The notes under the pieces were generated by a model. The model was given only the letters and a program-made list of their open reading frames with translations. It ran no database searches and was not told the DNA's origin. Of a stretch of 64,000 nt of DNA, positions 23,017 through 57,169 are shown in pieces. Within the stretch, counting starts at the first letter, position 1, and each line of letters begins with the position of its first letter. Both the position numbers and the translations under genes were made by a program. Source of the stretch: Gammaproteobacteria bacterium (GTDB lineage Bacteria; Pseudomonadota; Gammaproteobacteria; Eutrophobiales; Eutrophobiaceae); the NCBI GenBank assembly GCA_965205405.1, contig OZ242169.1, positions 2,381,826 through 2,445,825 on the forward strand, given 5' to 3'.

Positions 23017-23185
23017 GGGGTTGAGTCGACCTGTTGGTAGTGGATGTTATTTTACACATATTAATAGGGAATATTTTTTTGACTGGATTCTGGCATGCGC
23101 TAGAATGACGGATGAGCTTATACTCGGTTTTAATATGACTTGTGTAATGGTATCCTGTCACCAGCCTACTGACTGCACAGTGACC

Positions 23186-26008: not shown

Positions 26009-26899
26009 ATGAATTTTGAAGTGGCTATCACCTGTGCAGTGACCGGTGCCGGCGATACGGTCGGAAAACATCCCGCCATTCCGGTTACTCCGGAACAGAT
26101 TGCCGGGGCCGCTATTGATGCAGCCAAGGCCGGGGCGGCTATCGTCCACTGTCATGTGCGTGATCCCGAGACAGGTAAGGGAGCGCGTGACGTTGAACTC
26201 TATCGGGAAACGGTCGACCGCATTCGCTCTGCCGAAACCGACGTGGTGATCAACCTTACCGCGGGTATGGGTGGAGACCTCGTCATCGGCCCGGATAATG
26301 CGCCGACAAAATTCGGGGATGACACTGATCTCGTCGGCGCCCTCGAGCGCCTGCCTCACGTGGAGGAATTGTTGCCGGAGATCTGCTCCCTGGACTGCGG
26401 CTCGTTGAATTTCGGTGACGGCAGTCTTGTTTACGTATCCACCCCCGACATGCTGCGCCGTGGCGCAAAACGCATCCGGGAACTGGGTGTAAAGCCTGAA
26501 CTGGAAATTTTCGATACGGGCAACCTGAGTTTTGCGCTGCAAATGTTTAAGGAAGATTTGCTGGACCCCCCGCCATTGTTTCAACTCTGTCACGGCATCC
26601 CCTGGGGAGCGCCGGCGGACGTGGGTGTTTTCAAATCCCTGGTCGACCAGTTGCCGCCCGGCGCTAACTGGACTGCCTTTGCCCTGGGCCGCTACCAGAT
26701 GGCATTTGCTGCACAGGCCGCCATACTCGGCGGCAATGTGCGTGTTGGTCTGGAAGACAATCTTTACCTGGAGAAGGGGGTATTCGCCAGTAATGCGCAA
26801 CTGGTAGAGCGGGCGCGCAAAATAATTGAACTGATGGGAGCCCGCGTGCTGGGACCTGACGAGGTTCGCACGAAATTCGGTCTGGTCAAACGTGCCTGA
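26009..26899 (+). CDS. BKACE / DUF849 family cleavage enzyme (CdhC-like 3-dehydrocarnitine cleavage enzyme candidate)
   Basis: [12 protein letters not shown]...[25 protein letters not shown], 296 aa. Context with the regulator and dehydrogenase. Confidence 0.75.
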
Positions 26900-27041: not shown

Positions 27042-28052
27042 ATGATGAAGGAGATCAAAACCGTAGCCGTAATCGGGACCGGGGTTATCGGCGCCGGTTG
27101 GGCGGCGCGTGTGCTGGCGCACGGACTGGACGTGGTTGCCTGGGATCCTGCTGCGGACTGGCAGGTCGGCTTGAAGGCAGCGCTGGAGAACGCCTGGCCG
27201 GCATTAAACAAGGTCGGCCTCTACCCCGGCGCCAGTTTGGACAGGCTGCGCTGTGCCGACACGATGGAGGCAGCCTGTGCGGTTGCTGATTTCATCCAGG
27301 AAAGCGCCCCGGAGCGGCTGGAATTGAAGCGTAGTCTGCATGCCCGAATAGACGCCAACGCCCGCGCCGATGTCATCATCGCTTCCAGTACCTCGGGATT
27401 GCTGCCATCTGATTTCCAGGCTGATTGCCGCCGTCCCGACCGGGTTATCGTCGGACATCCTTTTAATCCGGTATACCTGCTACCGCTGGTGGAAGTACTG
27501 GGCGGCAGCCAGACTGCGGATGAGAATATCGACCGCGCCGTGGAGTTCTACACCGACATGGGTATGCACCCGTTGCGAGTGCGCAGCGAAATCGAGGGCT
27601 TCCTCTCGGACCGCTTGCAGGAGGCCCTGTGGCGGGAAATCCTGCACTTGGTCAACGATGACGTGGCTAACACCGAGGAACTGGACGCAGCAATCACCTA
27701 CGGCCCCGGCCTGCGCTGGGCCTTTATGGGCACTTGCCTCAGCTTCCACATGGCGGGTGGCGATGCGGGCATGCGTGATTTTATGAAACAGTTCGGTCCG
27801 GCGTTGAAATTACCCTGGACAAAACTGGCAGCACCTGAGCTTACGGATGAATTAATTGACAAGATGACTGCCGGGACCCGGCAACAGGCTGCGGGCCGGA
27901 CAGTGAAGGAACTGGAACAGTTGCGCGACGATTGCATTATCGCCATCATGCAGGCGCTATCCCGTTACCAGGTCGGCGCCGGTAATGTACTTGCCCGGGA
28001 TGAGGCACGCCGACAGGTTTTTGCCACAGAGGACACAGAGAAAAAACATTAA
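27042..28052 (+). CDS. L-carnitine dehydrogenase-like (3-hydroxyacyl-CoA dehydrogenase family) protein
   Basis: TVAVIGTGVIGAGWAARVLAHGLDVVAWDP, 336 aa. Adjacent to the DUF849 gene and GbdR-like regulator. Confidence 0.7.
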   Translation: MMKEIKTVAVIGTGVIGAGWAARVLAHGLDVVAWDPAADWQVGLKAALENAWPALNKVGLYPGASLDRLRCADTMEAACAVADFIQESAPERLELKRSLHARIDANARADVIIASSTSGLLPSDFQADCRRPDRVIVGHPFNPVYLLPLVEVLGGSQTADENIDRAVEFYTDMGMHPLRVRSEIEGFLSDRLQEALWREILHLVNDDVANTEELDAAITYGPGLRWAFMGTCLSFHMAGGDAGMRDFMKQFGPALKLPWTKLAAPELTDELIDKMTAGTRQQAAGRTVKELEQLRDDCIIAIMQALSRYQVGAGNVLARDEARRQVFATEDTEKKH

Positions 28053-33043: not shown

Positions 33044-33598
33044 ATGAGTAAAGTGAATTTCACCGCTATGGATCACGGTACCCGTGAGGACTACGACCTG
33101 GTTTTTGCCCATGATGTTAAGAATGGGTCACACCAGGCAGAGCAGGTAATCGGCTGGTTGCGCGCCATGGACGGGGATTCTCCCTACCATGTCAGCCGCC
33201 TTGAACACTGTCTGCAGACTGCCACACGAGCGGAACAGGATGGCGCCGATGAAGAAACTGTCGTGTGTGCCCTGTTGCATGACATCGGCGACGTGCTCGG
33301 CCCCCACAACCACTCACAACTCGCTGCGGCCCTGTTGCGGCCCTACGTCGGTGAAAAAAATTACTGGGTCGTCAAATACCACGGACTGTTCCAGGGCTAT
33401 TACTGGATGGAGCATTTCAACCAGGATAAAAATGCCCGGGTCCGCTATAAAGACCATCCCTACTACCAGGACTGCGTCGATTTCTGTGCTAACTGGGACC
33501 AGTGTTCATTCGATCCCGCCTACCCGTCGAAACCACTTGAACATTTTATCCCCATGGTCGAACGGTTGTTTGCGCTCAAGCCGCTAACTTTCGTCTGA
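33044..33598 (+). CDS. HD-domain protein, PhnZ/MIOX-like (possible di-iron oxygenase)
   Basis: LEHCLQTATRAEQDGADEETVVCALLHDIGD...H.H...YH...D parallels the PhnZ/TmpB HD-oxygenase layout. 184 aa. Confidence 0.55.
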   Translation: MSKVNFTAMDHGTREDYDLVFAHDVKNGSHQAEQVIGWLRAMDGDSPYHVSRLEHCLQTATRAEQDGADEETVVCALLHDIGDVLGPHNHSQLAAALLRPYVGEKNYWVVKYHGLFQGYYWMEHFNQDKNARVRYKDHPYYQDCVDFCANWDQCSFDPAYPSKPLEHFIPMVERLFALKPLTFV

Positions 33599-34931: not shown

Positions 34932-36935
34932 TTATATGGGATACCGCTCCAGTATTTCCGCCCCCTGTGCTTCTTTCAGGGGGGCCAGCCAGGGCTCAAA
35001 GTTGCGCCATTGTTCCAGTCCGGTCTTGTAGATGGGCTGCCGGACCTGTTCGGAACTGGGGGTACGGATACTACGTTCAGTCTGGTGGTAGTCCACACAG
35101 GCCTGCTCGAACGGCAGGTCACAAAAATCAAGAATCCTGTGTACCTGTTCCTCCAGGTTATTCACTACGTCCTCGTGCTGAACGCGTAGAACGAAGCCGG
35201 GCAATACCCGGTCCCAATGATCCATGAGATTTACGTATTGCCGGTAATAATTACCTATTTCTTTCAGGCCGTACGAAAACTCCTGCCCCTCGCCAAACAA
35301 CTGTTTGAAGCCACTGAAACAGCAGGCCATGGGGTGACGACGAGCATCAATAATCCTGGCATTTGGCAGGATGAGTTTTATCAGCCCGATATGGAAAAAA
35401 TTGTTTGGCATCTTGTCGGTGAAAAACGGGGCGGCGCCCCGGTAGGCGCGGGTATCCTGAATGAATTGCTCACCAAATCTCCGAAAATAATCATCATCAA
35501 GCTCCGTCAGAATTTTCGGATATCTGGGTATCCCGTCCTGATTACTGTCCCTGCCGCGCAGCCGTTTTGCCAGGTTCAGGATATTGTGCAGTTCCATGGT
35601 GCCATCAACCTGGGAATGCGACGACAGTATCTGTTCAAGCAGGGTTGACCCCGCTCGTGGCAGCCCGACAATAAAAATGGGATCGGGCACTTCCAGTCCC
35701 ACCCCTTGTTTAGCGGAAAATAATTCCTCGGTACACACCGTTATCTGGCTGTCGATCCTTATCTGTAATTGCCCGGGGCTATGATGGGTTTTCGATTGTT
35801 TCAGGGTGTTGCCTTTATCATAATAGTCAAACGACTGTCCATATTCCCGTCTGTCTTCATAGGCATTGCCCAAGGCAAAACACAGTTGAATGCGGTCATT
35901 CTCGCTGGTCGCCGAGTCCGCCTCCATTGCCGTCATTTGCGCCAATTCGTCTTCGGTGAACACATAGGATTTTGTGTTCGCCAGACTCCAGTAGGCATCT
36001 CCATGATCCCGCCTGATCCCGTATGCTTTGCGGTAAAGTTCTACGGCCTTGTCGATATCGCCGTCTGTTTTGTGTACATGGGCCAGGGAAACCGGGAAAA
36101 AATGATTTTCAGGATGCGCTTCCATCAACTTCTCATAGCTTTTGATTGCGGTCTCATTTTTGCCGACCCCGGTGCAGGCGTTGGCGTAAAGCGACAACAC
36201 GCGGTCACGGTCGTCGGGGTAACGTTGTAACAGTAATTCGGCCTGTTCCAGGGCTTTGCTGAACTTCTGTGTCTTGAGCAGCAGGTTGGCGTACTGCATG
36301 CGCGCGTTGACATGTTCGGGGTGGAATTCGACGCAACTCTCCAACAGAAATTCGGCATCCTTGTAAACCTTGTTCCGGGTTGCAATTTCGGCAAGCAGCC
36401 TCATGCCCTCCGCGTGGGTTTTATTGGAACGCAGAAAGTGGTTGCATAAGCGCTCCGCGTCGATCAGCTTATCATCCGACAGGTAGCTGATTACCCCCAA
36501 CAGCTCGACCGGCAGTTCGCTGAGAAACTCGACCTGTTCCTGTGCGGCAGCCAGCTTCTCCCGATTGCCTGTGTCCCGATACAGTTTGACCAGACATTTC
36601 CAGCTATTTATCAACGAGGGGTCTGCAGTAATAGCCTTTTCAAAAGCGGCGCCGGCGCGGGTATATTGTTTTAAAGCGATGTGGTTGTAACCAACCTCCT
36701 GGTAGGCCCGGCCAAAATGGGGTTGATATCGGAGGATTTTTGACAAGGTGGAAATTGCCGTCATCCACCGGTGTTGATGGCGCTGAGCTACGGCCAAGGC
36801 ATACTGCGCCTCAATATTGTCCGGTTCGGCGTCCAGCAACGCCTGCATCATTTGCTCGGCCCGGTGAGGCTCGTTTTTGCTTAGCTGATACTGGGCTTCC
36901 TGTATTCTGGCCTGCGTGTCAGTCATGTTATACAC
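34932..36935 (-). CDS. TPR-repeat sulfotransferase
   Basis: About 380 aa of TPR repeats at the N-terminus. C-terminal sulfotransferase with GLPRAGSTLLEQIL and RHPMACCFS motifs. 667 aa. Confidence 0.8.
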   Translation of the reverse strand: MYNMTDTQARIQEAQYQLSKNEPHRAEQMMQALLDAEPDNIEAQYALAVAQRHQHRWMTAISTLSKILRYQPHFGRAYQEVGYNHIALKQYTRAGAAFEKAITADPSLINSWKCLVKLYRDTGNREKLAAAQEQVEFLSELPVELLGVISYLSDDKLIDAERLCNHFLRSNKTHAEGMRLLAEIATRNKVYKDAEFLLESCVEFHPEHVNARMQYANLLLKTQKFSKALEQAELLLQRYPDDRDRVLSLYANACTGVGKNETAIKSYEKLMEAHPENHFFPVSLAHVHKTDGDIDKAVELYRKAYGIRRDHGDAYWSLANTKSYVFTEDELAQMTAMEADSATSENDRIQLCFALGNAYEDRREYGQSFDYYDKGNTLKQSKTHHSPGQLQIRIDSQITVCTEELFSAKQGVGLEVPDPIFIVGLPRAGSTLLEQILSSHSQVDGTMELHNILNLAKRLRGRDSNQDGIPRYPKILTELDDDYFRRFGEQFIQDTRAYRGAAPFFTDKMPNNFFHIGLIKLILPNARIIDARRHPMACCFSGFKQLFGEGQEFSYGLKEIGNYYRQYVNLMDHWDRVLPGFVLRVQHEDVVNNLEEQVHRILDFCDLPFEQACVDYHQTERSIRTPSSEQVRQPIYKTGLEQWRNFEPWLAPLKEAQGAEILERYPI

Positions 36936-36967
36936 CGTCCAGCGCCGTCCGCGGCGCTCCTGAGGGA

Positions 36968-36995
36968 AATGAAAAAGGGCGAACCGAAGTCCGCC
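36968..36995 (-). terminator. Intrinsic terminator after the TonB-dependent receptor
   Basis: Reverse complement AAGGGCGGACTTCGGTTCGCCCTT followed by TTTTCATTT. Confidence 0.5.
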
Positions 36996-37037
36996 CTTGC
37001 TATTTTACTATAGTGGATTATTCAGGTAAGGACTGAG

Positions 37038-39845
37038 TTAATAATTGTAGGAGAACCTCACGCCCACGGTGCGCGGCCGCTGCACAGTGACTGCCGGAGT
37101 ATAATGGCCGGCAATCTGCATGACCGGCGCTTCCTCGTCATTCAGGTTGTCGATAAAGACCTCGGCTCCCCAGTTGGCAGCCTCCAGACCCACGGACAGG
37201 TTAACGGTGGTGGCGTCGGGATTGACGAAGCGCGAGTTGCTAGGCAGGCGCGAGCCGCCCATTCCATCCGGTATCTCCACGGTGCCGTAGGTCCCGCCCT
37301 CATGCTGAAGTTTCAGACCGGAGTAAGCGCCGGATTGCTGGTACAGGGTGTCGTCCATGAATTCCGCGCTGCCCACAACTCCGGAAACACTTTCGCCCCT
37401 GTAATTGACGCTGGCTGCCACGTAGGCGTTGCTGCCTCCGCCCACGGCAATGGGGAAGCTGTAGCGCGCTCTCAAATTACCCGAAAACGAGGGTGAGAGC
37501 GGCAACTCGCTGCCTTCCGGCACAGCGATGCCCGACAACTGCTGATTCAGTTTGGTTAACTCCGTGTCCAGCAGGCTGAACGCGCCGGAGACAGTCAGAC
37601 CGTTGGTGGGAGCCCACTGGAAGTCCACGTCCATCCCCTGGGTTTCCGCATCGCCGACATTCTCGATAAAGAACAGGAAAGCCACATTGGAGGGGTCAAA
37701 ACGAGATACCTGCAAATCACTGATATCTGTCTTGTAAAGGGCGGCATTAAATTTCAGGGAACCATCGAAAAGAATGCTTTTCAAACCGATTTCATAGCTT
37801 TTCAAGGTATCGGTCCTGGCCACCGCCGGCACCACGTAATTCTCGAAGACGCCCGTCTGGTTGGTGGACAGCTGGCCGGCGTTGCGGTTGGACGTGGCCG
37901 GGCGGTAACCCTCGGCGAAGCTCATGAATACCATCATGTCTTCCATGGGGCGATAGTTCAGGGCAAGGCGCATGATGGCATCGCTTTCGTTGACGGAGCC
38001 GTCGGATCGCAGATTGCTGATGTCCACGTGGCCGTTCTTGATGGCATCGAGCGTGGCCATATTGCTGCCGCCACCGCGGAACAGTTCTCGGGGAGAGCCA
38101 TCGTCTCCGTTCGGGCTCAACGCGCTCAGGATGATATCGTCGTTACCGGTGGCGTTGTATTCTCCCAAGGTCTCCAAACGCACTGAGACATCATTGCTGA
38201 AGTCAGTACCGTTGCAGCGGCCGTCCGCAGTTGCCTGAGAGTTGCCGCCAATACCGTAGCGGCAGCCGAAGGAGAAATTGGATGCGCCCTGCAACTGCGA
38301 GGTCAGGTCGTAGTAACGGGCGCTGACCGAAGCGGATAGCGTGTCGGAGAAATCAAACGCCAGTTCGCCGAAGATTGCCCATTCCTCTTCGTCGCGGGTA
38401 AAATCATTGAAAAAAACGGTTTCCGGCGGGCGCGGACCTTTCGCGTTGACACCAGCGGTAGGTAGAGTGTCATTGCCCAGCTGGAAGTTCGGATCACCGG
38501 TGACTTCGGCAAAAACATCGTTGGTGCCAAAGTACTGGAAGTCGCCTAAATGGTTGGTCTCCACTTCGTTATAGTAAGCGCCGGCCAGCACCCTCAGGCG
38601 CTTGGCAGGGTCGGTGCTGACCCGCAGTTCGTGAGTCATGCGGGTATTTTCCGTTTCCTCCACGTATTGCTTGGTTGGGTCGTAACAATTGTTCGGCACG
38701 CTCAGGTCGTAGTAGGGGCCAGAGCACAGGTAGTAGGTGATATAACCACCGCCGTTGTTGTAATGAGTATAGTCGATGAGGCTCTCGACGTCGCGGTGCA
38801 GGTAACCACCCGTGTAAACCACGTCAAGGTTAGCAAGACGTCCGTTCAGGGTCCAGGTCGTTAATCCAAATTCATCTTCGTTGGCGTCCGGCGCAAAATG
38901 AGCGGATGATTCCTTGCCGCCAAGGCTGGTATCAACCAGGAATACGCCTTCCACGTCCAGTTCCTGATAGGATTGCGATACCAGGGCATCCCAGTCATCG
39001 TTGATTTCAAAAGCCAGGCTGACGCGGCCCCCGCGATAGGTGGCCTCATTCCAGTTGTTCTCCACCAGGGCATCGTTGCTGGCGCTTTGTATGCTGTCGG
39101 CGTTGGCGAACTGCGGACCATAGCCGATCGAGTTGCGGTCAATCACTTCAGCGCTGGGCGTAAACGTGGCGGGTACATTGTCAATCCAGCCACCCTGATC
39201 GTCATTGTACAACACAATGCGGACTGCCAGTTGTTCCGAAATGGGCACATTCAGGTAGGCGTCCACCGCGTAACTGTCGGAGCCGCCATCGGTGTTGCTG
39301 TAGCGGGCATTAATACCTCCCTGGACTTCACCCTGCGTCGGCTTATTAGTGATCATGCGCAAGTTGCCGGATTGGGAACTGGCGCCGAATAACGTACCCT
39401 GGGGTCCGGACAGCACTTCGATACGCTCCATATCCACTGCGTAGACGTCCAGGTTGCGGCCGCCGAAGGACACCGGTTGCTCATCAAGGTACAGGGCGAC
39501 GCCCGGCGCTGAGCCCTGGGCCGAGGATATAGTGACACTGGTCTGCTCGGTGGCGCTGCCGCGGATGTAAAGCTCCTTTTTGCCGGGGCCATTCCCGGCG
39601 CTAACCACATTCGGCAGGTATTCTATGTATTTGTCGAAAGTCTCGACGCGAAGCTCCCTGAGCGTGTCGCCGCCTACTGCCTGCACAGTGATAGGCACGT
39701 CCTGCGCGCTTTCGGCCCGCTTGGTCGCCGTTACGATTATCTCTTCGATCTGGGCATTGATTGGTGCGCTGACGGCTGTTGCAGTGATGGCTGACAGGAT
39801 TGCGCAGCTCAGTTTATTCCGTTTGAAATCAACCTTATTGGACAT
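37038..39845 (-). CDS. TonB-dependent receptor (intact, 935 aa)
   Basis: Signal peptide, plug (EEIIVTATKRAE, RIEVLSGPQGTLFGASSQSGNLR), C-terminal RFSYNY. Confidence 0.9.
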   Translation of the reverse strand: MSNKVDFKRNKLSCAILSAITATAVSAPINAQIEEIIVTATKRAESAQDVPITVQAVGGDTLRELRVETFDKYIEYLPNVVSAGNGPGKKELYIRGSATEQTSVTISSAQGSAPGVALYLDEQPVSFGGRNLDVYAVDMERIEVLSGPQGTLFGASSQSGNLRMITNKPTQGEVQGGINARYSNTDGGSDSYAVDAYLNVPISEQLAVRIVLYNDDQGGWIDNVPATFTPSAEVIDRNSIGYGPQFANADSIQSASNDALVENNWNEATYRGGRVSLAFEINDDWDALVSQSYQELDVEGVFLVDTSLGGKESSAHFAPDANEDEFGLTTWTLNGRLANLDVVYTGGYLHRDVESLIDYTHYNNGGGYITYYLCSGPYYDLSVPNNCYDPTKQYVEETENTRMTHELRVSTDPAKRLRVLAGAYYNEVETNHLGDFQYFGTNDVFAEVTGDPNFQLGNDTLPTAGVNAKGPRPPETVFFNDFTRDEEEWAIFGELAFDFSDTLSASVSARYYDLTSQLQGASNFSFGCRYGIGGNSQATADGRCNGTDFSNDVSVRLETLGEYNATGNDDIILSALSPNGDDGSPRELFRGGGSNMATLDAIKNGHVDISNLRSDGSVNESDAIMRLALNYRPMEDMMVFMSFAEGYRPATSNRNAGQLSTNQTGVFENYVVPAVARTDTLKSYEIGLKSILFDGSLKFNAALYKTDISDLQVSRFDPSNVAFLFFIENVGDAETQGMDVDFQWAPTNGLTVSGAFSLLDTELTKLNQQLSGIAVPEGSELPLSPSFSGNLRARYSFPIAVGGGSNAYVAASVNYRGESVSGVVGSAEFMDDTLYQQSGAYSGLKLQHEGGTYGTVEIPDGMGGSRLPSNSRFVNPDATTVNLSVGLEAANWGAEVFIDNLNDEEAPVMQIAGHYTPAVTVQRPRTVGVRFSYNY

Positions 39846-40001: not shown

Positions 40002-40159
40002 AATATCTGGGGTCAGAGTAAAAATACTCAACTATAACCCGGCACCTTCTACCAAATTACCTGTATTTTTACTCTGACCCCACAAATCCGCCAGGAGCGG
40101 ATTTGGACGTCCGAAGGACGCCCGCAGGGTGTGTGCCAGGGAAGGCGCACATCAAATAT
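40002..40159. repeat. Extended repeat unit in inverted orientation (MITE copy 4 plus 71-bp extension)
   Basis: Reverse complement of 30947..31103. Overlaps the stop codon of the BBOX-like gene. Confidence 0.8.
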
Positions 40160-41373
40160 CAAGTCTGGCGGAAGTCCCGGCCTTTTCTGCGCAACACTTC
40201 CAGGCAGCTCTGTAAATCGTCCCGGCAGATATAGCAGCCCTGCAGATGGCGATAGCCGCTGTTCGGATCAAAGGCGCTGCGTGCGTGCATGATGCGGGCA
40301 TTATCGAATACCTGGCAGTCGCCCTTGTTCAGGCGGAATTTGAATTGCATTTCGGTACTGTTTGCAATGCCGAGAAACGCCCGGTGCGCCCGATAAAATT
40401 CCGCCTGTAATTCAGGTTCGATATCCACCGGTCCCAGCAGGGCCGGATGCAGCCGGGTGCCGATAATATCACCGTCTTCATCGACGTCGATGATGGTGCC
40501 GCGGTTGATGATGTGCCAGTCATCGTCAATAGAACTGAACGTCACTTTCCGGGTACTCAGCAGGTTAAATGCAGCACGATCCATTTGGTGCAACTTTCTG
40601 GCCGAAGCGATGGAATCAACCAGGATACTTTCTCCCCCCCGGGCATCGTTATGCAAACAATGCAGAAACTGTATGCCCGGCATATGGCGACGGCTGGGGA
40701 GATCGTTATGCGGATACAACGCCTGCGGCGTATAGGCCAGGTTTTCGGGGTTTGGTTTTGATTCCACGTCGAAATGACGACCAAAATGGGATTCTTCGAG
40801 GAAGGCAACCCGTTCGGCAAGCCCGACAACGGCAAGGTTTTCCGCGGGAACGCCGGTGACGAAAGCAACGCCTGTATCGTCGATATACTCCAGCAGTTGA
40901 AGGAGGTCCTCATCGTTGCTCATTGCGCCGTCATAGTCAACGGATATGCTTTCCTTATCGAACTCGGCGGCGGCCCAGGCTGTACGCTGTTTTTTGCGCG
41001 CCAGGCGCGCGGCGTTCTCGCAACGGTGCCGATTCAACCACTCCCAGCTAAAGAAACTCCCGGCACAGTCAGCTCCATACCCGGGCCAGGTAATGTGCAG
41101 GCCGCGCGCATCGGTACTGAACGAAGCAGGGGTGATATCCAGCGGGATCGCCAAAAAGTCGACAATGCGCTCCCATGCCTCCTGGTGAGTGCATTTCGGG
41201 CAATGACAGTTCTCCCGCAGCCAGTAGAACAGGTGGCGACTGCGGTAACCCTCAGGCCAGGCAATCTCCAGACTGTCCGCCTGCGCTTTTATTGCGGGGA
41301 TTTGCTCCCGGATATCCAGGGGTTTTATCAACTTGCTGACGCCTCCGCCGGTTCGCCAAAAAGATAACGACAA
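40159..41373 (-). CDS. Gamma-butyrobetaine hydroxylase-like (BBOX/TmpA-type) 2-oxoglutarate/Fe(II) dioxygenase with N-terminal Zn-ribbon domain
   Basis: N-terminal FYWLRENCHCPKCTHQE (DUF971-type) plus a TauD-like C-terminal domain. 404 aa. Confidence 0.7.
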   Translation of the reverse strand: MSLSFWRTGGGVSKLIKPLDIREQIPAIKAQADSLEIAWPEGYRSRHLFYWLRENCHCPKCTHQEAWERIVDFLAIPLDITPASFSTDARGLHITWPGYGADCAGSFFSWEWLNRHRCENAARLARKKQRTAWAAAEFDKESISVDYDGAMSNDEDLLQLLEYIDDTGVAFVTGVPAENLAVVGLAERVAFLEESHFGRHFDVESKPNPENLAYTPQALYPHNDLPSRRHMPGIQFLHCLHNDARGGESILVDSIASARKLHQMDRAAFNLLSTRKVTFSSIDDDWHIINRGTIIDVDEDGDIIGTRLHPALLGPVDIEPELQAEFYRAHRAFLGIANSTEMQFKFRLNKGDCQVFDNARIMHARSAFDPNSGYRHLQGCYICRDDLQSCLEVLRRKGRDFRQT

Positions 41374-45558: not shown

Positions 45559-45913
45559 GGTAGATCTCCTGAGCCGTTAAAACTATAGCGTTGCAGAATA
45601 TATAATGGACAATATCCGCTAGCCGGTTTTCAGTGATTGATTTCCGGCAACTAAATGGCGCGAATCAGGGTACTGAAAACGGCGTAATTATACACGATTA
45701 GGGGAGGAAATTATGAGATGACATGTTATATGTTCCTGACATGGACAATTCTGTTTGTTGACAACACTTAAATGACGGTGTTTGTCGCATATACATGTAA
45801 CAATGTCGTGCTGCTATATACATGAAATTACTGGCTAATCCAGACTTCCGCGAAATTCAGTTCAGGAAAAGCAGGAGATTTAAATCTGTACTTCCTTAAG
45901 TTACTCATGAGGC

Positions 45914-46651
45914 ATGATAGCAATGAACCAAGAAGCTGCTGCAGAAATTTGGGTTGAAGACCAAGACGATGAGCTGGTCCTGTCGGAACTGGACGATACG
46001 GAACTGGTTGAGCAAATGCACGATGATCTCTATGACGGCCTTAAGGAAGAGATTGTAGAAGGGACGCAACTCCTGCTGGGCCGGGGCTGGGCCGCGGACA
46101 AGGTGCTTAACGAGGCCCTGGTCGGCGGCATGCAGATCGTGGGTATCGATTTCCGCGACGGGATTTTATTCGTGCCGGAGGTGCTGCTCGCGGCCAATGC
46201 CATGAAGGGAGGGATGACGGTGTTACGCCCGCTACTGGCGGAAACGGGGGCAAAACCCATCGGCAAGATGGTGATCGGTACCGTGAAAGGCGATATCCAT
46301 GATATCGGCAAGAACCTGGTCGGAATGATGATGGAAGGGGCCGGTTTCGAAGTAATCAATCTCGGCATCAACAACAGTGTCGAAAGCTATTTTGCCGCGA
46401 TGGAACAACATCAACCGGATATTCTCGGCATGTCAGCCCTGCTCACCACCACTATGCCCTACATGAAAGTCGTGATCGACGAGATGGTCTCACAAAACAT
46501 TCGCAACGATTATATCGTCATGGTCGGCGGCGCCCCTCTGAACGAGGAATTCGGTATTGCGGTTGGCGCCGATGCGTACTGCCGGGATGCGGCGGAAGCT
46601 TCCGACACCGGCACGCGCCTGGTACGAACGCGGGAAATCATCAGCGCCTGA
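45914..46651 (+). CDS. Corrinoid (cobalamin)-binding protein of a methyltransferase system
   Basis: B12-binding DxHxxG motif (VKGDIHDIGKN) plus an N-terminal B12-binding_2-like cap. 245 aa. Confidence 0.85.
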   Translation: MIAMNQEAAAEIWVEDQDDELVLSELDDTELVEQMHDDLYDGLKEEIVEGTQLLLGRGWAADKVLNEALVGGMQIVGIDFRDGILFVPEVLLAANAMKGGMTVLRPLLAETGAKPIGKMVIGTVKGDIHDIGKNLVGMMMEGAGFEVINLGINNSVESYFAAMEQHQPDILGMSALLTTTMPYMKVVIDEMVSQNIRNDYIVMVGGAPLNEEFGIAVGADAYCRDAAEASDTGTRLVRTREIISA

Positions 46652-46765
46652 TCCGCAGATCAAGCACACGGGCATAGCTTCAGGAATTGACACGTCCCAT
46701 GCCGATCTGCCAGAATTTCCCCGGCTTTGCTGAGATGGTTTGATCGAAATCTGGAGAGAACAGCG

Positions 46766-48310
46766 ATGGCAAGACAATCCGGTGGGAGAGAGGCGCGCAG
46801 GGCACTGCGTAGCGCACCGCTGGCTGATGCGCTTAAGCCCGTTCATCCTGGTGAAGTCGGCGGGCAATTCCGGCCTTTGAAGGATGCGGACATAGCGGCC
46901 ATAAACGATAACGTCTTCAGGATTCTGGGAGAAGTCGGCTTCAGCGAAGCGACGCCACATTGCATCGAGGCCTGTACCGGCGTCGGCGCTGTGCTCGGCG
47001 ACGACGGCCGTTTGAGAATGCCGAGAGCCGTGGTCGAAAACGCCATGGGGCTTGCCAGGCACAACCTGGTGTTGCACGGCCAGGACCCCAGACACGACTT
47101 GCACCTCAACGGCAGCAAGGTCCACTTCGCGACGGCCGGCGCCGCGGTCATGGTTGCCGACCCTGAAAACAATCTGTACCGCGAGTCGACGGCACAGGAC
47201 CTCTACGACATGGCGCGCATTGCCGACACCTGTGAACATATTCACATGTTCCAGCGTACCTGCGTGTTGCGAGACATAGCAGACAATTACGAAATGGACC
47301 TCAATACCGCCTATTGCGTGGTTATGGGCACGAGCAAGCACGTGGCCTCGAGCTGGACTGAATTCAAGCATCTCGAAAAAACCCTGGAAATGTTGCACAT
47401 CATTGCCGGAAGCGAAGCCGAGTGGCGCGCGCGACCGTTTGTCAGCCAATCCAACTGTTTTGTTGTGCCGCCGATGAAGTTCGCCGTCGACTCGCTGGAA
47501 TGTTTACGAGTCGCAGTCCAGGGCGGTATGCCGGTGCTGCTCCTGTCTGCAGGACAAGCCGGCGCGACAACGCCGGCTTGTCTGGCCGGCGCCGTCTCCC
47601 AGGCCTGGGCAGAATGTCTCGGTGGTCTGGTCTATGTGAATGCAATAGAACCCGGCGCCCCGGCTATTCTCGGCACCTGGCCTTTTATCTCCGACCTGCG
47701 CACCGGCGCCATGAGCGGCGGTTCACCCGAACAGGGCCTGCTGTCCGCGGCCTGCGCGCAGATGGGCAACGTCTACGACTTGCCCTTTGGTACGGCCTGC
47801 GGGATGACGGATTCGAAATTCCCGGATTTTCAGGCCGGCGCCGAACGCGCCGCGACAACCCTGGCCGCGGCGCTGTCAGGCGCCAACATTATCTACGAAT
47901 CGGCAGGCATGTACGCGAGCCTGTTAGGGACTTGCCCCGAGAGCCTGTTATTGGACAATGACGTGCTCGGCGCCGCCATGCGGGTAACGAGAGGGATTGA
48001 AGTTAATGCCGAGACCTTGAGTTTTGACGAAATAAAACAGGTCTGCACCGGTGGCGAAGGTCATTACCTGGGCTCTGATCGGACGTTGAAGGTCATGCAA
48101 AGCGAATATATTTATCCGGACTTCAGCGATCGTACGAGTCCTAACGTGTGGGAAGAAAGCGGAAAACCGATCATGTTGCAGAAAGCTATCGAGAAGAAAC
48201 AAGCGATTCTCACCAGTCATTTTCCCGGCCATGTCAGTGGTGAAACTGACGCCGAGGTGCGGGCCAGGTTCCCGATTTTCCTATCCCGCGAGGCCATCGG
48301 CCGGAGCTGA
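46766..48310 (+). CDS. MttB-superfamily (non-pyrrolysine) quaternary-amine:corrinoid methyltransferase
   Basis: 514 aa. The MttB/MtgB fold is recognised throughout. There is no internal amber codon, so it is the non-Pyl type. Confidence 0.75.
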   Translation: MARQSGGREARRALRSAPLADALKPVHPGEVGGQFRPLKDADIAAINDNVFRILGEVGFSEATPHCIEACTGVGAVLGDDGRLRMPRAVVENAMGLARHNLVLHGQDPRHDLHLNGSKVHFATAGAAVMVADPENNLYRESTAQDLYDMARIADTCEHIHMFQRTCVLRDIADNYEMDLNTAYCVVMGTSKHVASSWTEFKHLEKTLEMLHIIAGSEAEWRARPFVSQSNCFVVPPMKFAVDSLECLRVAVQGGMPVLLLSAGQAGATTPACLAGAVSQAWAECLGGLVYVNAIEPGAPAILGTWPFISDLRTGAMSGGSPEQGLLSAACAQMGNVYDLPFGTACGMTDSKFPDFQAGAERAATTLAAALSGANIIYESAGMYASLLGTCPESLLLDNDVLGAAMRVTRGIEVNAETLSFDEIKQVCTGGEGHYLGSDRTLKVMQSEYIYPDFSDRTSPNVWEESGKPIMLQKAIEKKQAILTSHFPGHVSGETDAEVRARFPIFLSREAIGRS

Positions 48311-48412
48311 ATGTCAGGGGACGGACTTCAAGTCCGTCCCCGGTTGGTCCAGGCCATCGGCCGGAGTTAACCCGCATAGTCAGGGGACGGACTTCAAGTC
48401 CGTCCCCAGTTT
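48290..48412. repeat. Tandem ~70-bp duplication, each unit carrying the perfect hairpin GGGGACGGACT-TCAA-GTCCGTCCCC
   Basis: Hairpins at about 48312-48340 and 48381-48410. GCCATCGGCCGGAG recurs at 48290 and 48350. Lies between convergent genes. Confidence 0.6.
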
Positions 48413-48443
48413 GCACACGCTGTAAGCAGGGGTGGGAATCCGG

Positions 48444-50909
48444 TCAGCTACGGATGCGTTTATTGTCAGGATCGTACATGGGTCGCAGTGAGGCCTCGGC
48501 CAGAACGCGGATGCCGGCTACTTCGATTTCGAACTTATCTCCGACCAGTTCCGTCACCTCGCGAATTTCCGACGTATCAACGTAACCGAGACCGATACTG
48601 CCGCCCAGGGTGTGGCCGTAGCTGCCGGACGTCACGTGGCCGATGATCCTGTCTCTATGCCAAATCGGCTCGTTGTGGTAGAGCAGTGGTCCCGGGTCGC
48701 ATAACTTGAACTGCAGCATGCGTCTGCGCAGACCCTGCTCCTTCTGTTTCAGTAGCGCATCGCGGCCGATGAACCCGCCCGGCTTGTCGAACTTCACCGT
48801 AAACCCCAGGCCCGCTTCGAGCGGCGTGTCCTCGTCGGTAATATCGTGGCTCCAATGTCGATAGGCTTTTTCGATACGCAGGGAGTCGAGGGCATGATAA
48901 CCGGCGTGGGCCAGATCGATCGACTCTCCGGCAGCGACGATAGTGTCGTACACCCCGGCGACGAACTCGGTCGGTATGTAAAGCTCCCAGCCCAGTTCAC
49001 CGACGTAGGTGATTCGTGAGGCGCGCACCAATGCGTAACCCAACTCTATCCCCCGGCTGGTTGCAAAGCCGAACGCCTCGTTCGACAAATCGGCCGGCGT
49101 CAATGGCTGCAACAGCTTGCGCGCATTCGGACCCATCACGGATATGACGCCCATGGCCGATGTTACATTGGTCAGCACGCAGTGCGCATCGGCGGGAATG
49201 TGTTGTTTGAGCCAGTGAAAATCGCGGACTTCAGTAGCGGCGGCCGTCACGATCAGGAAGCTGTCCCGGGCGAGACGCGTGACTGTCAGGTCCGCTTCGA
49301 TTCCTCCCTGCCCATTCAACCACTGCGTATAGACGATGCGACCGGGCTTAACATCAACGTCGTTGGCGCAAACGTAGTTCAGCACCCGTGTGGCATCTCT
49401 CCCTTCCAGCCGGTACTTGGCGAAGGACGACTGGTCGAACAGGCCGACGTTTTCACGCACCGCCCGGTGTTCGGCGGCCGAGTACTCGAACCAGTTCTGG
49501 CGCCCGTAGCTGTATTCATACCTGGCCTCCACCCCCCGGGGAGCGTACCAGTTCGGTCGTTCCCACCCGGCCGTTTCGCCGTGACAGGCGCCAATTGATT
49601 TCAGGCGGTCGTAAAGCGGCGACTTGCGCACGCCGCGTGCGGTCTCATATTGGCGAAAGGGGTAGTGCCTGGCGTAGAGCAGACCCAGGCTCTCGGACAC
49701 GCGCTCGCGCAGGTATTTGCGGTTGCCCTGGAAAGGCATGTTGCGCCGCACGTCAACTTCCCAGAGGTCGGCCGGCGGATGCCCGGCGCGAATCCATTCC
49801 GCCATGACTTTCCCTATTCCCCCCGCAGATTGCAGGCCGATTGAATTCAAACCGGCGGCGACAAAGCAATTCCTGAATTCGGGCGCCGGGCCGAGATGGT
49901 AACGAACGTCCGGCGTAAAGCTTTCCGGACCGCAAAAAAACTTCTGGATACCTGCCGATTCGAGGGCCGGCACGCGCGCCATGGCATCCCGGAGAATCGG
50001 CTCGAAATGATCGAAGTTGCCGGCAATTTCGTCAAAGCAGAAGTCTTCGGGAATGCCGTCCACCCCCCAGGGCCGGGCGCTGGGTTCAAACGCGCCCACC
50101 AGTAATTTGCCGGCGTCATGTTTGTAATAGGTACAGGCGTCATAGTCGCGTATCACCGGGAGGTTCTCATCCAGCCCCTCAACGGATTCAAACAACGCAT
50201 AGTAGTGTTCACAGGCGTGCAGCGGTACGTTGGCCCCGATTGTCGCGGCCAGGTCCCGCGTCCACATACCGGCGCAAAGCACCACGTGGTCGGCGTCCAT
50301 ATCGCCGTACCCGGTACTGACGCCGGTGACCCGGCCGGCGCCGGTACGAATTGCCGTTACCGGCACGTTCTGAAAAATCCGTGCGCCGCTGGCCCGTGCT
50401 CCCTTGGCCAGTGCCTGGGTGATGTCAACCGCGTTGCCGTATCCGTCGGAAGGAATATGTATCCCGCCGAGCACGTCGTCGGTATGAAGCAGCGGTATCC
50501 GCTCCTTGATGGCCCCGGGCGTGACGACATCGACTTTCAGCCCGAACACCTGCGCCATCGAGGCGTTGCGTTTCAGTTCCTCGAAGCGTTCTTCACTGGT
50601 GGCGATTGAGACCGAACCGCATTGCCGGTAGCCCGTCGCCTGTCCTGTTTCCGCCTCCAGTCCGTCGTAGAGTTCCCTGGTGTAACGGGCAAGCTTGGTC
50701 ATATTGATGGAACCGCGCAACTGCCCGATCAGACCGGCTGCGTGCCAGGTGGTCCCCGATGTGAGCTGCTTGCGCTCCAGCAGTACAACGTCCTGTGAGT
50801 GGAATTTGGCCAGGTGATAGGCAATGGAACAACCGATCACGCCGCCACCGATGATAACCACGTCGGCGCGTCCCGGAAGATTCGGCAAGCTGGCTCGGGT
50901 ATCGGACAC
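48444..50909 (-). CDS. Dimethylglycine/sarcosine dehydrogenase-family flavoprotein, paralog 2
   Basis: VVIIGGGVIGCSIAYHLAK...TSGTTWHAAGL. Length 821 aa. Confidence 0.85.
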   Translation of the reverse strand: MSDTRASLPNLPGRADVVIIGGGVIGCSIAYHLAKFHSQDVVLLERKQLTSGTTWHAAGLIGQLRGSINMTKLARYTRELYDGLEAETGQATGYRQCGSVSIATSEERFEELKRNASMAQVFGLKVDVVTPGAIKERIPLLHTDDVLGGIHIPSDGYGNAVDITQALAKGARASGARIFQNVPVTAIRTGAGRVTGVSTGYGDMDADHVVLCAGMWTRDLAATIGANVPLHACEHYYALFESVEGLDENLPVIRDYDACTYYKHDAGKLLVGAFEPSARPWGVDGIPEDFCFDEIAGNFDHFEPILRDAMARVPALESAGIQKFFCGPESFTPDVRYHLGPAPEFRNCFVAAGLNSIGLQSAGGIGKVMAEWIRAGHPPADLWEVDVRRNMPFQGNRKYLRERVSESLGLLYARHYPFRQYETARGVRKSPLYDRLKSIGACHGETAGWERPNWYAPRGVEARYEYSYGRQNWFEYSAAEHRAVRENVGLFDQSSFAKYRLEGRDATRVLNYVCANDVDVKPGRIVYTQWLNGQGGIEADLTVTRLARDSFLIVTAAATEVRDFHWLKQHIPADAHCVLTNVTSAMGVISVMGPNARKLLQPLTPADLSNEAFGFATSRGIELGYALVRASRITYVGELGWELYIPTEFVAGVYDTIVAAGESIDLAHAGYHALDSLRIEKAYRHWSHDITDEDTPLEAGLGFTVKFDKPGGFIGRDALLKQKEQGLRRRMLQFKLCDPGPLLYHNEPIWHRDRIIGHVTSGSYGHTLGGSIGLGYVDTSEIREVTELVGDKFEIEVAGIRVLAEASLRPMYDPDNKRIRS

Positions 50910-50954: not shown

Positions 50955-53381
50955 TTACAACCTTAATCGTTCGTTGGCAGGATCATAAGCCGGTTCCTTC
51001 AGGACCCTTGCCGGACAGCGTTCTCCGAGGAGGTCAATACTCAACTCCATGCCGGGTTTGGCCAGTTCCGGGGTGACGTAACCAAAGCCCAGGCATTTTC
51101 GAACGAAATGGCCGTAAGCCCCCGATGTGGCTACCCCGACGCACGTATCGCCATCGAACAGGGGCTCACTGCCACGCACGTCCGAGTCGATTGCATCGAC
51201 TTCGAAATACACGAGTTGCATGATTCGGTCCTGTTGATCCAGGGTGGCCTGCCGGCCCACAAAGTCTTCCTTATCAAACTTGATAAAACGCTCCATGTCG
51301 GCATCAATCATCGTGACTTCGTTGGTCAACTCCGCTCCCCAGCCCCGATACGCCTTCTCCATCCGCAGGCTGTTGACGGCGTACAGCCCGAAATCGGCAA
51401 TAGCGAACGCCTCGCCTGCTTCCCGGAGGGCATCGTATAACTCCTCCATGTATTCCATCGGCGGATGCAACTCCCAACCCAGTTCACCGACGTAGTTGAC
51501 CCGCAACGCCCGGACGGGCCTGCCTGCAACGGTGATTTCTTTGCCGCTTAACCAGCGAAACGCGCCGCTGTCCAGAGGCGAGTCCGTAAGTTTAGCAAGG
51601 ACATCTCGCGATCTCGGCCCGGCAAGCACCAGCACGCCCCGCTCATCGGTGACGTTGGCGACCTGCACTTGCTCATCTTCACGCGCGGACTGAAGCAAAT
51701 GGTCCATGTCGCGCAACTCGGCGCCGGCTGCAGACAATACGTAGAAATGCTCGTCTGCAAGATGTGTAATCGTCATCTCGCCGCCGATACGTCCGCCTTC
51801 GGACAACACGTGCGCCAGGGTGATACCGCCTATTTTCGGCATCCTGTTGGCGCAAATACGATCCAGGAACGCACGGGCGCCGGCGCCGGTCACGTCGAAC
51901 TTGGCGAAACCCGATAAATCCAGGATGCCGACACGTTCGCGCACCGCCAGGCACTCACTACGCACAACGTCGAAAACGTTGTTGCGACGGTAGTCGTATT
52001 CTTCCTCGCGAGCGTCCGGAGAAAACCATTTGGGCCGTTCCCAACCGAATGTCTCGGTGTACACGCAGCCCCGTGCTTTCAGTTTTTTATACAGCGGGCT
52101 GACGCGTCGCGGGCGGGCGGCGGGCAACTCTTCCCCGGGAAGCGGGGTAAAGTAGGTCATGCCGTAATCCTGGCGGCCCTTCGCCTTCATGTAGTCCTCA
52201 TCGGCAAAAACGCCGAAGCGACGAGGGTCGAATCCGGTCATATTAATTTCCGCATCTCCGTAGAGCATCCACTGTGCGAGATACTTACCGCACCCCGCGC
52301 CTTGCGCAATGCCGAACGAGGAACCGCAACAGAGCCAGAAGTTCTTTAGCCCCGCCACGGGACCCAACAGGGGCGGGCCGTCCGCGGAATGGGGAATGGC
52401 GCCGTTGACGATACGTTTGAGGCCGGCATTTTCGATGACCGGCATGCGCTCCATCGCGCGCTCCAGCCATGGCATCAGACGGTCGAGATCTTCGTCAAAC
52501 AGTTCGCTGTCGGACTCCCACTCCGGCAGCCCCCGCGGCGGCCACGCTTCGGCAAGGTTATCGTGCTCATAAATGCCGATGAGGCCTGACTTCTGCTCCT
52601 GGCGCAGGTACGCCGAGGAGTACGGATCGCGCATCACCGGAATCTCTTCATCTCGCTCGATAAATTCCGGTATCGGACCGGAGACGAGATAGTGGTGTTG
52701 AATGTTGCAGATAGGCAGGTCCGCGCCCACCATTTGCGCCACCTGCCTTGCATAACAGCCCGCTGCGTTGACGACGGTTTGCGCAATGACGACGCCCTTC
52801 TCGGTCACCACCTGCCATTCACCGGAAGGCAGCGCGTTGATATCGACGACCCGGTTATGCCGGACGATCGCGGCGCCCATATTGCGTGCGCCGCGAGCCA
52901 TTGCGTTGGTAAGACCCGCCGGGTCCGCATGACCGTCATCGCGCGTCCACGCTCCGGCCAGGACAGCGTCAGTGGATATAAACGGATTGAGCTTTCTGAT
53001 CTGATCGACGCCGATGATTTCCATGTGAAACCCGACGTTATCTGCAATCCCTTTGACGTATTTAAACCAGTCCAGGTCACGTTCGGTCAACGCGAACCGA
53101 ACACTGCCCGACGTGTGCCAACTGACAGACTGTCCGGTGAGTTCTTCCAGTCTTTTATAGAGGGAGATGCTGTATTCATGGATTTTGGCGAGATTGTAAT
53201 TGCCGACGAAGTTCGGGCATTGGCCGGCCGCATGCCAGGTCGAACCGGAGGTGAGTTCACCTTTCTCGATCAAAACAACGTCAGTGCAACCCTCCTCAGC
53301 CAGGTGGTAGAGCAGTCCGACTCCCATGATTCCGCCCCCAACGATGACGATGCGAGCATGATTATCCGTGCTGTTCTTCAT
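50955..53381 (-). CDS. Dimethylglycine/sarcosine dehydrogenase-family flavoprotein, paralog 3
   Basis: IVIVGGGIMGVGLLYHLAE...TSGSTWHAAGQ. Length 808 aa. Confidence 0.85.
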   Translation of the reverse strand: MKNSTDNHARIVIVGGGIMGVGLLYHLAEEGCTDVVLIEKGELTSGSTWHAAGQCPNFVGNYNLAKIHEYSISLYKRLEELTGQSVSWHTSGSVRFALTERDLDWFKYVKGIADNVGFHMEIIGVDQIRKLNPFISTDAVLAGAWTRDDGHADPAGLTNAMARGARNMGAAIVRHNRVVDINALPSGEWQVVTEKGVVIAQTVVNAAGCYARQVAQMVGADLPICNIQHHYLVSGPIPEFIERDEEIPVMRDPYSSAYLRQEQKSGLIGIYEHDNLAEAWPPRGLPEWESDSELFDEDLDRLMPWLERAMERMPVIENAGLKRIVNGAIPHSADGPPLLGPVAGLKNFWLCCGSSFGIAQGAGCGKYLAQWMLYGDAEINMTGFDPRRFGVFADEDYMKAKGRQDYGMTYFTPLPGEELPAARPRRVSPLYKKLKARGCVYTETFGWERPKWFSPDAREEEYDYRRNNVFDVVRSECLAVRERVGILDLSGFAKFDVTGAGARAFLDRICANRMPKIGGITLAHVLSEGGRIGGEMTITHLADEHFYVLSAAGAELRDMDHLLQSAREDEQVQVANVTDERGVLVLAGPRSRDVLAKLTDSPLDSGAFRWLSGKEITVAGRPVRALRVNYVGELGWELHPPMEYMEELYDALREAGEAFAIADFGLYAVNSLRMEKAYRGWGAELTNEVTMIDADMERFIKFDKEDFVGRQATLDQQDRIMQLVYFEVDAIDSDVRGSEPLFDGDTCVGVATSGAYGHFVRKCLGFGYVTPELAKPGMELSIDLLGERCPARVLKEPAYDPANERLRL

Positions 53382-55465: not shown

Positions 55466-57165
<1,700 letters not shown>

Positions 57166-57169
<4 letters not shown>

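Follow-up and report, generated by a model that had tools for sequence, protein, structure and literature searches.

A probable split, cobalamin-dependent quaternary-amine demethylase in a gammaproteobacterium and the MttB-family subfamily to which its methyltransferase belongs

In a 64-kb stretch of contig OZ242169.1 from a Gammaproteobacteria bacterium (positions 2,381,826-2,445,825; hereafter the window), a gene for a small corrinoid protein, mtgC, is followed by a gene for a methyltransferase of the MttB superfamily. We consider it highly probable that these two genes encode the substrate-specific half of a split demethylase for quaternary amines, aerobic, cobalamin-dependent and of the MtgBCD type, with its partners at a second chromosomal locus. 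A preliminary description made from the sequence alone had drawn attention to the lack of a cognate pterin methyltransferase. This lack is no anomaly: neither this enzyme (MtgD) nor the activase RamA lies near the orthologous methyltransferase gene in 59 of 80 related loci, and the same dispersal has been reported for Ruegeria pomeroyi (PMC12478193). The puzzle of the missing component is resolved by gene dispersal, which is normal for the MtgBCD system and already published.

The methyltransferase and corrinoid protein genes

We coined the name MttB1 for the subfamily of the window's methyltransferase and use MttB2 for a second paralogue type found in its relatives. The open frame of mttB1 runs from a TTG at 46727 to 48310 on the plus strand, with an ATG at 46766, behind the sequence GGAGAG, as the likelier start of a 514-residue product, the length given in the preliminary description. 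In a Pfam scan, this product matched PF06253 (MTTB) over 490/500 positions (355 bits, E = 4e-106, profile positions 2-490 of 500), in agreement with the preliminary description, which had taken it for a non-pyrrolysine MttB-superfamily enzyme beside a corrinoid protein. The frame contains no internal stop, and the residue aligned with Pyl334 of Methanosarcina barkeri MttB (7XCL) is Met347, which is invariant in 74 orthologues; MttB1 therefore belongs to the non-pyrrolysine branch of the MttB superfamily (PF06253/COG5598). Its identification as the trimethylamine methyltransferase MttB itself was rejected on the grounds of a TIGR02369 (trimethylamine methyltransferase equivalog) score of 329 bits, below the cutoff of 525, and the lack of a pyrrolysine codon.

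Separately, the Rfam family PYLIS_3 matched positions 47804-47903(+) inside mttB1 with 40.4 bits (threshold 38). We discarded this match as a real pyrrolysine insertion element, since UAG is replaced by AUG (Met347) and many of the predicted pairs are non-canonical. It most likely reflects coding-sequence homology rather than an RNA element, and could yield false 'Pyl' annotations.

The product of mtgC matched PF02310 (E = 9e-26) and PF02607 (E = 1e-14) in the Pfam scan, and the cobalamin-binding motif DxHxxG / SxL / GG could be read from its translation as DIHDIG, SAL and GG. Gene calls in relatives give a protein of 242 residues, fitting a downstream in-frame ATG at 45923. The best NCBIfam match was MtgC_2, at 184 bits under its cutoff of 370, and the best PDB match was 1y80 (182 bits); the protein is 89-95% identical to the MtgC of relatives' MttB2-MtgC-MtgD-RamA operons. 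Comparison with more than 10 relatives gave dN/dS values of 0.05-0.09 for both mtgC and mttB1, and both genes are therefore under strong purifying selection and not relics. The intergenic region between mtgC and the divergent gene for a TonB-dependent receptor yielded no cobalamin riboswitch or other Rfam family, and its single sigma-70-like match (45577-45606) was not above chance. The receptor was considered as a BtuB-like protein and rejected as such.

As the preliminary description had noted, the plus-strand pair converges on two minus-strand genes of the dimethylglycine dehydrogenase (DMGDH) family. Together with a third paralogue in the window, their products belong, by domain architecture and similarity to DMGDH, to the dimethylglycine/sarcosine dehydrogenase family (rat DMGDH scores in Table 1). 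The 808-residue enzyme is the nearest of the three to mammalian dimethylglycine dehydrogenase, and the 821-residue product, the more divergent of the convergent pair, is possibly sarcosine-dehydrogenase-like. A 66-bp tandem duplication (48291-48433) between mttB1 and these genes contains the last 16 nt of mttB1 and the palindrome GGGGACGGACTT-C-AAGTCCGTCCCC, which is present as a single copy in the 99%-identical strain L001. Because the same palindrome recurs elsewhere in relatives (L011 1317, L012 759, L014 20357 and L015 1636), the two copies are likely a bidirectional terminator or REP-like element. The palindrome region also gave weak matches to the Rfam family BjrC80.

Only the B and C components are present within the whole 64 kb, as had been claimed. 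Pfam scans of essentially all open reading frames (ORFs) of at least 150 residues detected no PF00809/MtrH, RamA/RACo, DUF1638, MetF, GbcAB or BHMT in the window. Likewise, six-frame tblastn of the window with relatives' proteins as queries gave no match for MtgD, RamA, PF13769, DUF1638, MetF, MTHFR_C or FTHFS (best E of 0.1 or higher).

Partner genes in related genomes

The window MttB1 has thousands of close homologues. An exact-sequence look-up gave no match, and the 99%-identical strain L001 served in its place. We assembled 80 genome loci with MttB1 orthologues of 71-95% identity, called ORFs in all of them, clustered and labelled the products, and counted neighbours within 10 kb of the orthologue. 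These loci come from gammaproteobacterial metagenome-assembled genomes (MAGs) assigned to Halieaceae, Woeseiaceae, Ca. Rariloculaceae, Ca. Azotimanducaceae, Ca. Foliamicus and Pseudohongiella, and the isolate names of many suggest sponge or sediment metagenome bins. A DMGDH-family gene, mostly paired, occurs in 67/80 loci, MtgC in 35/80, and MtgD and/or RamA in 21/80. The arrangement of the window, MtgC without MtgD or RamA, is found in 23/80 loci, and 36/80 have none of the three; L003 exemplifies loci in which MttB1 has no adjacent MtgC. MtgD is adjacent in 13 related loci and RACo/RamA is adjacent to MttB1 in 18, so that an adjacent copy is the exception for MttB1, not the rule.

Where the partners are present, they have the expected domains, PF00809 in the MtgD cluster and Fer2 with three RACo domains in the RamA cluster. 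L049 and L059 carry the operon MtgC-MtgD-RamA-MttB1, and L072 carries MtgD-RamA-MttB1. In L024 the order is MttB2-MtgC-PF13769-MetF-MtgD-RamA-MttB1-DMGDH-DMGDH, and in L060 a divergent MttB2-MtgC-MtgD-RamA operon adjoins MttB1-DMGDH-DMGDH; MetF and FTHFS also stand beside MttB1 in some relatives. Because such complete operons exist, MttB1 would be expected to work with a canonical pterin methyltransferase and activase. L006 (93% identity) has the order MtgC / PF13769 / RamA / MttB1, and the start of its RamA ORF (L006 4985-5230; contig JAAXHV010000092.1) encodes about 80 residues from the middle of MtgD, with 39% identity to MtgD residues 141-220. This locus looks like an intermediate in operon break-up, retaining a remnant of an mtgD deleted between the PF13769 gene and ramA.

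We traced the partner locus with the RamA of L006 as query, which is less conserved than MtgD; with 85-90% identity over hundreds of genomes, MtgD does not single out one lineage. Two close relatives, L007 (OZ220696.1, 92%) and L008 (OZ242265.1, 89%), keep the core order TonB receptor / MtgC / MttB1 / DMGDH x2, with downstream urease genes in L007 and an aldehyde dehydrogenase (ALDH) gene between mtgC and mttB1 in L008. In both, the same chromosome carries a RamA orthologue at a distance of about 0.9 Mb, in a second locus that reads MttB2 / PF13769 / (DUF5981-MTHFR) / MtgD (Pterin_bind) / RACo. The DUF5981-MTHFR gene of this locus is present in L084 and absent from L083. No B12-binding protein was found within 10 kb of the second locus in two close relatives, and a third assembly has the same locus, again without MtgC. 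In L086, MtgC lies inside the second locus, and no MttB1 locus could be linked to this genome. The window MtgC is 89% (L024) and 93% (L086) identical to the MtgC beside MttB2.

The simplest reading is that the two loci complement each other, one contributing MtgC and MttB1 and the other MttB2, MtgD and RamA. Because the same MtgC orthologue occurs at either locus, one MtgC most likely serves both MttB1 and MttB2. For the source genome, the second locus is predicted from relatives at 89-92% MttB1 identity. Of the earlier proposal that the third component is encoded elsewhere or substituted, the first half is borne out in close relatives and extended from them to the source genome; substitution by the GcvT-like domains found no support. 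An mtgA-like gene just beyond the window is unlikely, since the pair is 15 kb or more from both of its edges and relatives have the partner locus at a distance of about 0.9 Mb.

Two features of the second locus are recorded in their own right. In the long-read MAG L086, mtgC (6377-7104) is broken into ORFs of 61 and 182 residues, by a frameshift or through an assembly error; the larger piece and the window MtgC share 93% identity. A 100-residue PF13769 protein annotated as 'virulence factor' (L083 8597-8899, L084 7072-7374, L086 7215-7517 and L088 7105-7407) belongs to the MtgD/RamA/MetF locus throughout, in Gammaproteobacteria and as far as Sinorhizobium meliloti, and is not named in the MtgBCD papers cited here.

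Active site, proposed mechanism and candidate substrate

In aerobic marine bacteria, glycine betaine is demethylated by MtgB (PF06253), the small corrinoid protein MtgC and the pterin-binding MtgD (Mausz et al. 2025, PMC12478193). According to that study, the process requires MtgC and MtgD in R. pomeroyi and is accompanied by co-induction of RamA and DUF1638, which act in cobalamin reactivation, while MetF2 oxidises methyl-tetrahydrofolate (methyl-THF); the genes are unlinked (SPO2108/SPO2134, SPO2160, SPO1863 and SPO2041). A split methionine synthase draws on the same MtgC and MtgD, one MtgC can serve as many as seven PF06253 paralogues, and in marine Alpha-, Gamma- and Deltaproteobacteria the genes for dimethylglycine and sarcosine demethylation are frequently neighbours of mtgBCD (PMC12478193). 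Dataset S2 of the same work lists marine gammaproteobacteria, OM60/Halieaceae members among them (OM60 HIMB55; HTCC2080, HTCC2143 and HTCC2148), with MtgC, MtgB and MtgD. In Phaeobacter inhibens, mtgB1 (PGA1_RS07270) has been genetically tied to growth on glycine betaine, and the other three paralogues are called uncharacterised (bioRxiv 10.64898/2025.12.19.695462).

The window resembles these aerobic MtgBCD(E) systems in that a PF06253 enzyme is paired with a small corrinoid protein (PF02607/PF02310) and the host is an aerobic proteobacterium, and in the nearby genes for dimethylglycine/sarcosine demethylation, here the two convergent DMGDH genes. It probably also resembles them in having MtgD, RamA, DUF1638 and MetF2 encoded apart and several MttB paralogues per MtgC. 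MetH is listed for HIMB55 and HTCC2080 in Dataset S2, so the dual role in methionine synthesis may not apply. The MtgB/MtgC/MtgA systems of Desulfitobacterium hafniense (DSY3156; PDB 2QNE/9YCE) and Methanolobus vulcani share the superfamily, the three-component logic and an ATP-dependent activase; in contrast, the host of the window is aerobic and its genes are dispersed.

Comparison with the solved proteins separated the two paralogues clearly. MttB1 scored only 187 bits against the D. hafniense enzyme (DhMtgB), 174 bits against M. barkeri MttB and 136 bits against S. meliloti 4YYC, whereas MttB2 of the relatives scored 437 bits (45% identity), 116 bits and 745 bits (69% identity), respectively, and is the MtgB orthologue; MttB1 and MttB2 are about 23-24% identical to each other. 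DhMtgB binds glycine betaine through Y97, R312, H348 and F356, and R312 is conserved across all members of known function, every one of which acts on acidic quaternary amines (PMC13080624). We aligned 74 MttB1 orthologues, 10 MttB2 sequences and the three solved proteins, and found G/G/E/L at these four columns in the window MttB1 and in 74/74 orthologues. In contrast, MttB2 has Y/R/H/G and thereby keeps Y97, R312 and H348. By these comparisons, MttB1 is a separate paralogous subfamily that lacks the glycine-betaine-binding residues of MtgB, and the earlier label 'MtgB-like' does not hold in the strict sense. With M. barkeri MttB, whose score is near that of DhMtgB, MttB1 has in common a GANxIY motif and Gly at the Y97 position; it differs in having Met347 in place of UAG/pyrrolysine, in falling below the TIGR02369 cutoff, in its occurrence in an aerobic bacterium and in its linkage to DMGDH genes.

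S. meliloti has both types. The 4YYC type, named for a structure labelled 'putative trimethylamine methyltransferase', stands beside MtgC, DUF1638, PF13769, MetF, MtgD, RamA and bmt, and an MttB1 type that is 53% identical to the window protein lies in a LysR / DMGDH / DMGDH / MttB1 module about 330 kb from that cluster. The window MttB1 corresponds to this second, unstudied paralogue and not to 4YYC. The module of MttB1 and two DMGDH genes would therefore be old and separate from the MtgB core. As side observations, the second DMGDH gene of the module is split into two frames in S. meliloti Ak57 (CP090106.1; L087 12442-14773) and missing from the gene table, and CP090106.1, although labelled 'pSymB', has 3.7 Mb and appears to be a chromosome filed as a plasmid.

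In the mechanism that we propose, MttB1 would move one N-methyl group from a trimethylammonium compound, likeliest glycine betaine, to the Co(I) of the adjacent MtgC, which would serve as the methyl carrier by alternating between Co(I) and CH3-Co(III). MtgD would hand the methyl group from MtgC to THF, and MetF, with FTHFS in some relatives, would lead methyl-THF into one-carbon oxidation. Cobalamin oxidised to Co(II) would be re-reduced by the RACo/RamA-type activase, which, like MtgD, would be encoded at the second locus with MttB2, the true MtgB/4YYC type, which there lacks its own corrinoid partner. From the resulting tertiary amine (dimethylglycine in the case of glycine betaine), the convergent pair of DMGDH-family flavoproteins would then remove two further methyl groups and trap the carbon as methylene-THF through their GcvT-like domains. 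By established chemistry, flavin amine dehydrogenases act on nitrogen that still has its lone pair, and a quaternary amine is out of their reach. Since a flavin enzyme could not oxidise the quaternary nitrogen, the methyltransferase would take the first methyl group and the DMGDH-type enzymes the second and third. The corrinoid and flavin enzymes are thus most likely successive steps of one pathway and not, as first proposed, two separate routes.

Other fates for the methyl group on MtgC deserve consideration. Its transfer to homocysteine by an MtgE/MetH-type module, which would make the system a betaine-dependent methionine synthase, has a precedent in roseobacters, whose MtgC is common to MtgBCD and the split methionine synthase MtgE (PMC12478193). 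We regard this as improbable for the window. The Pfam scans revealed no PF02574 protein in the window, relatives possess a canonical MtgD together with MetF and FTHFS beside MttB1, which points to flux towards THF and one-carbon oxidation, and stoichiometric methionine synthesis could presumably not absorb a catabolic flux. Still less credible is the proposal that MtgA is replaced by the neighbouring DMGDH-family enzymes, whose GcvT-like domains would take the methyl group from methyl-cobalamin; gene adjacency and the THF binding of these domains lend themselves to it. GcvT-type domains capture an iminium or formaldehyde equivalent as 5,10-methylene-THF, we know of no methyl-corrinoid chemistry for them, and MttB1 orthologues are co-operonic with a dedicated PF00809 enzyme. 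The series of operon break-up from L024 through L006, with its mtgD remnant, to the window, with a spacer of 75-114 bp, could also be read as the decay of a pair left non-functional by the loss of MtgD and RamA. That reading is equally hard to sustain against two intact genes with the dN/dS values given above, an arrangement of B and C alone kept in 23 of the 80 genomes, and the retention of MtgD and RamA at the second locus in relatives.

For a split demethylase, the question of substrate follows, and here the evidence leans towards glycine betaine because of the genomic context: carnitine-to-betaine genes, DMGDH, SoxBDAG, a GbdR-like regulator and BCCT transporters. The window encodes the conversion of gamma-butyrobetaine/carnitine via dehydrocarnitine and betainyl-CoA to glycine betaine, and that of dimethylglycine via sarcosine to glycine; in the absence of GbcAB and BHMT from the window, MttB1/MtgC is its only candidate for the step from glycine betaine to dimethylglycine. 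In Woeseiaceae loci, MttB1, MtgC, the DMGDH pair, BKACE and carnitine dehydrogenase form one cluster, and across the related loci GbdR-like regulators adjoin MttB1 in 10 and BCCT transporters in 24. Furthermore, Dataset S2 gives gammaproteobacterial 'MtgB1' proteins as 56-58% identical to the glycine-betaine-induced R. pomeroyi SPO2108 (PMC12478193). Between Alpha- and Gammaproteobacteria we found 53% identity for the MttB1 type (S. meliloti versus the window) and about 67% for the 4YYC type; the published figure is nearer to 53%, which suggests, without proving it, that the induced roseobacter MtgB1 belongs to the MttB1 type. The neighbours of the roseobacter paralogues SPO2108, SPO2134 and PGA1_RS07270 in Dataset S1 were uninformative.

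Several points weigh against the reading as a whole. The evidence from the source genome is confined to 64 kb, its second locus being supplied by relatives, and no RamA appeared on the 1.55-Mb contig of the 99%-identical strain L001 among the matches listed, of which the top two (P0242 and P0243) belong to other assemblies. MttB1 is not of the characterised MtgB type and has no Arg at the R312 column; with G/G/E/L at the glycine-betaine-binding positions, it may act on something else, glycine betaine being the substrate of MttB2. For glycine betaine alone, the DMGDH pair linked to MttB1 would also seem superfluous, the window having a separate DMGDH-soxBDAG operon.

These points open a possible, though clearly less favoured, alternative in which the same split machinery operates on a substrate other than glycine betaine: MttB1 would be specific for gamma-butyrobetaine, carnitine, beta-alanine betaine or a non-acidic compound such as choline, the linked DMGDH pair would act on the products with two methyl groups and with one, and glycine betaine would fall to MttB2. 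The invariant replacement of the four DhMtgB residues, with Arg312 to Gly and His348 to Glu, supports such a change of substrate, R312 being conserved in every characterised member (PMC13080624), as do the retained residues of MttB2 and its closer identity to DhMtgB and 4YYC. The second DMGDH-soxBDAG set points the same way, as do the neighbouring gamma-butyrobetaine-hydroxylase-like/TmpA-like dioxygenase, the methylmalonate-semialdehyde-dehydrogenase-like ALDH that neighbours MttB1 in 14 loci, and the extension of the module with two DMGDH genes to S. meliloti, apart from the mtgBCDE cluster that holds the 4YYC type. Set against this are the context across families (BKACE with carnitine dehydrogenase, GbdR-like regulators, BCCT transporters and the high DMGDH similarity of the 808-residue enzyme) and the identity to SPO2108, which favour glycine betaine. 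As a tentative proposal, MttB1 might be a distinct, uncharacterised subfamily of aerobic Gamma- and Alphaproteobacteria that has lost the acid-anchoring Arg and, with two dedicated DMGDHs, strips three methyl groups from a trimethylammonium compound other than glycine betaine, possibly a non-acidic one, borrowing MtgC, MtgD and RamA.

The surrounding window and its significance

Beyond the pair, the window is largely a catabolic island for trimethylammonium compounds in what looks like an aerobic gammaproteobacterium (Table 1). The soxB and soxA products scored 721 and 1360 bits, each over its NCBIfam cutoff. The Fe(II)/2-oxoglutarate dioxygenase scored 293 bits with TIGR02409 (gamma-butyrobetaine dioxygenase; cutoff 415) and 278 bits with the phosphonate enzyme TmpA (cutoff 400), below both; it neighbours mtgC only in the lineage of the window and is adjacent in 9 related loci.

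Table 1 Features of the window. Positions count from its first nucleotide; bit scores of DMGDH-family products are against rat DMGDH.
Feature	Position	Strand	Remarks
Third DMGDH-family gene	9508-11970	+	625 bits
soxB, heterotetrameric sarcosine oxidase	11983-13239	+	after third DMGDH gene
soxA, heterotetrameric sarcosine oxidase	13519-16623	+	after third DMGDH gene
soxG, heterotetrameric sarcosine oxidase	16532-17200	+	after third DMGDH gene
BCCT transporter	19640-21196	+	
Fic/DOC-family gene, unrelated	21190-22098	-	within transporter/carnitine span
BCCT transporter	22907-24778	+	
GbdR/CdhR-like regulator	24850-25815	+	GbdR 348 bits, cutoff 480 not reached
BKACE	26009-26899	+	
L-carnitine dehydrogenase	27042-28052	+	NF005471 474 bits, above cutoff 414
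Gamma-butyrobetaine-hydroxylase-like/TmpA-like Fe(II)/2-oxoglutarate dioxygenase	40159-41373	-	PF06155 + PF02668
AT-rich intergenic region 5' of mtgC	45559-45913	+	presumed promoter/regulatory; TonB-dependent receptor gene divergent from mtgC
mtgC, MtgC-type corrinoid (cobalamin-binding) protein	45914-46651	+	245 residues; PF02607 + PF02310
mttB1, non-pyrrolysine MttB-superfamily methyltransferase	46766-48310	+	514 residues; substrate:corrinoid methyltransferase by family
Two copies of a perfect 12-bp-stem palindrome, GGGGACGGACTT-C-AAGTCCGTCCCC	48313-48433	.	between convergent mttB1 and DMGDH genes
DMGDH-family flavoprotein with THF-binding GcvT-like domain	48444-50909	-	821 residues; DAO, FAO_M, GCV_T, GCV_T_C; 541 bits
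DMGDH-family flavoprotein	50955-53381	-	808 residues; DAO, FAO_M, GCV_T, GCV_T_C; 655 bits (4pab)

Further genes were noted in passing. A module of TonB-dependent receptor, sulfotransferase with TPR domain (about 665 residues) and BCCT transporter occurs at 34932-39845 and 19640-24778, and recurs beside MttB1 in several gammaproteobacterial families (L027, L049, L057, L058, L064, L065, L081, L082 and others), with the receptor by MttB1 in 33 related loci and the sulfotransferase in 22. A small HD-domain protein with weak similarity to PhnZ is encoded at 33044-33598. The window also encodes several TonB-dependent receptors and a urease cluster, in which the Rfam family 5_ureB_sRNA (a Helicobacter family) matched 56734-57019(+) with 102 bits, on the strand opposite the urease alpha-subunit gene (minus strand, 55466-57169); the match probably reflects conserved urease coding sequence read in antisense. 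The left end of the window (1196-6919) looks degraded or mobile, with a GC content of 45-49% against about 57%, an IS200-like transposase (2636-3421) and fragments of TonB receptors, namely a Plug domain alone at 1196-1681 and one receptor split over 5227-6471 and 6443-6919.

The locus is one more indication that aerobic marine Gammaproteobacteria routinely use B12 to demethylate osmolytes of the betaine type. Because the components are normally scattered, such systems will escape annotation that looks for complete operons. Surveys in which each PF06253 gene is scored as 'mtgB' or 'mttB' lump together two or more paralogues that have diverged deeply (about 24% identity) and differ in their active-site residues. 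The part most worth following is MttB1 itself, whose unassayed subfamily has an active site of another kind and close linkage to genes of the DMGDH type.

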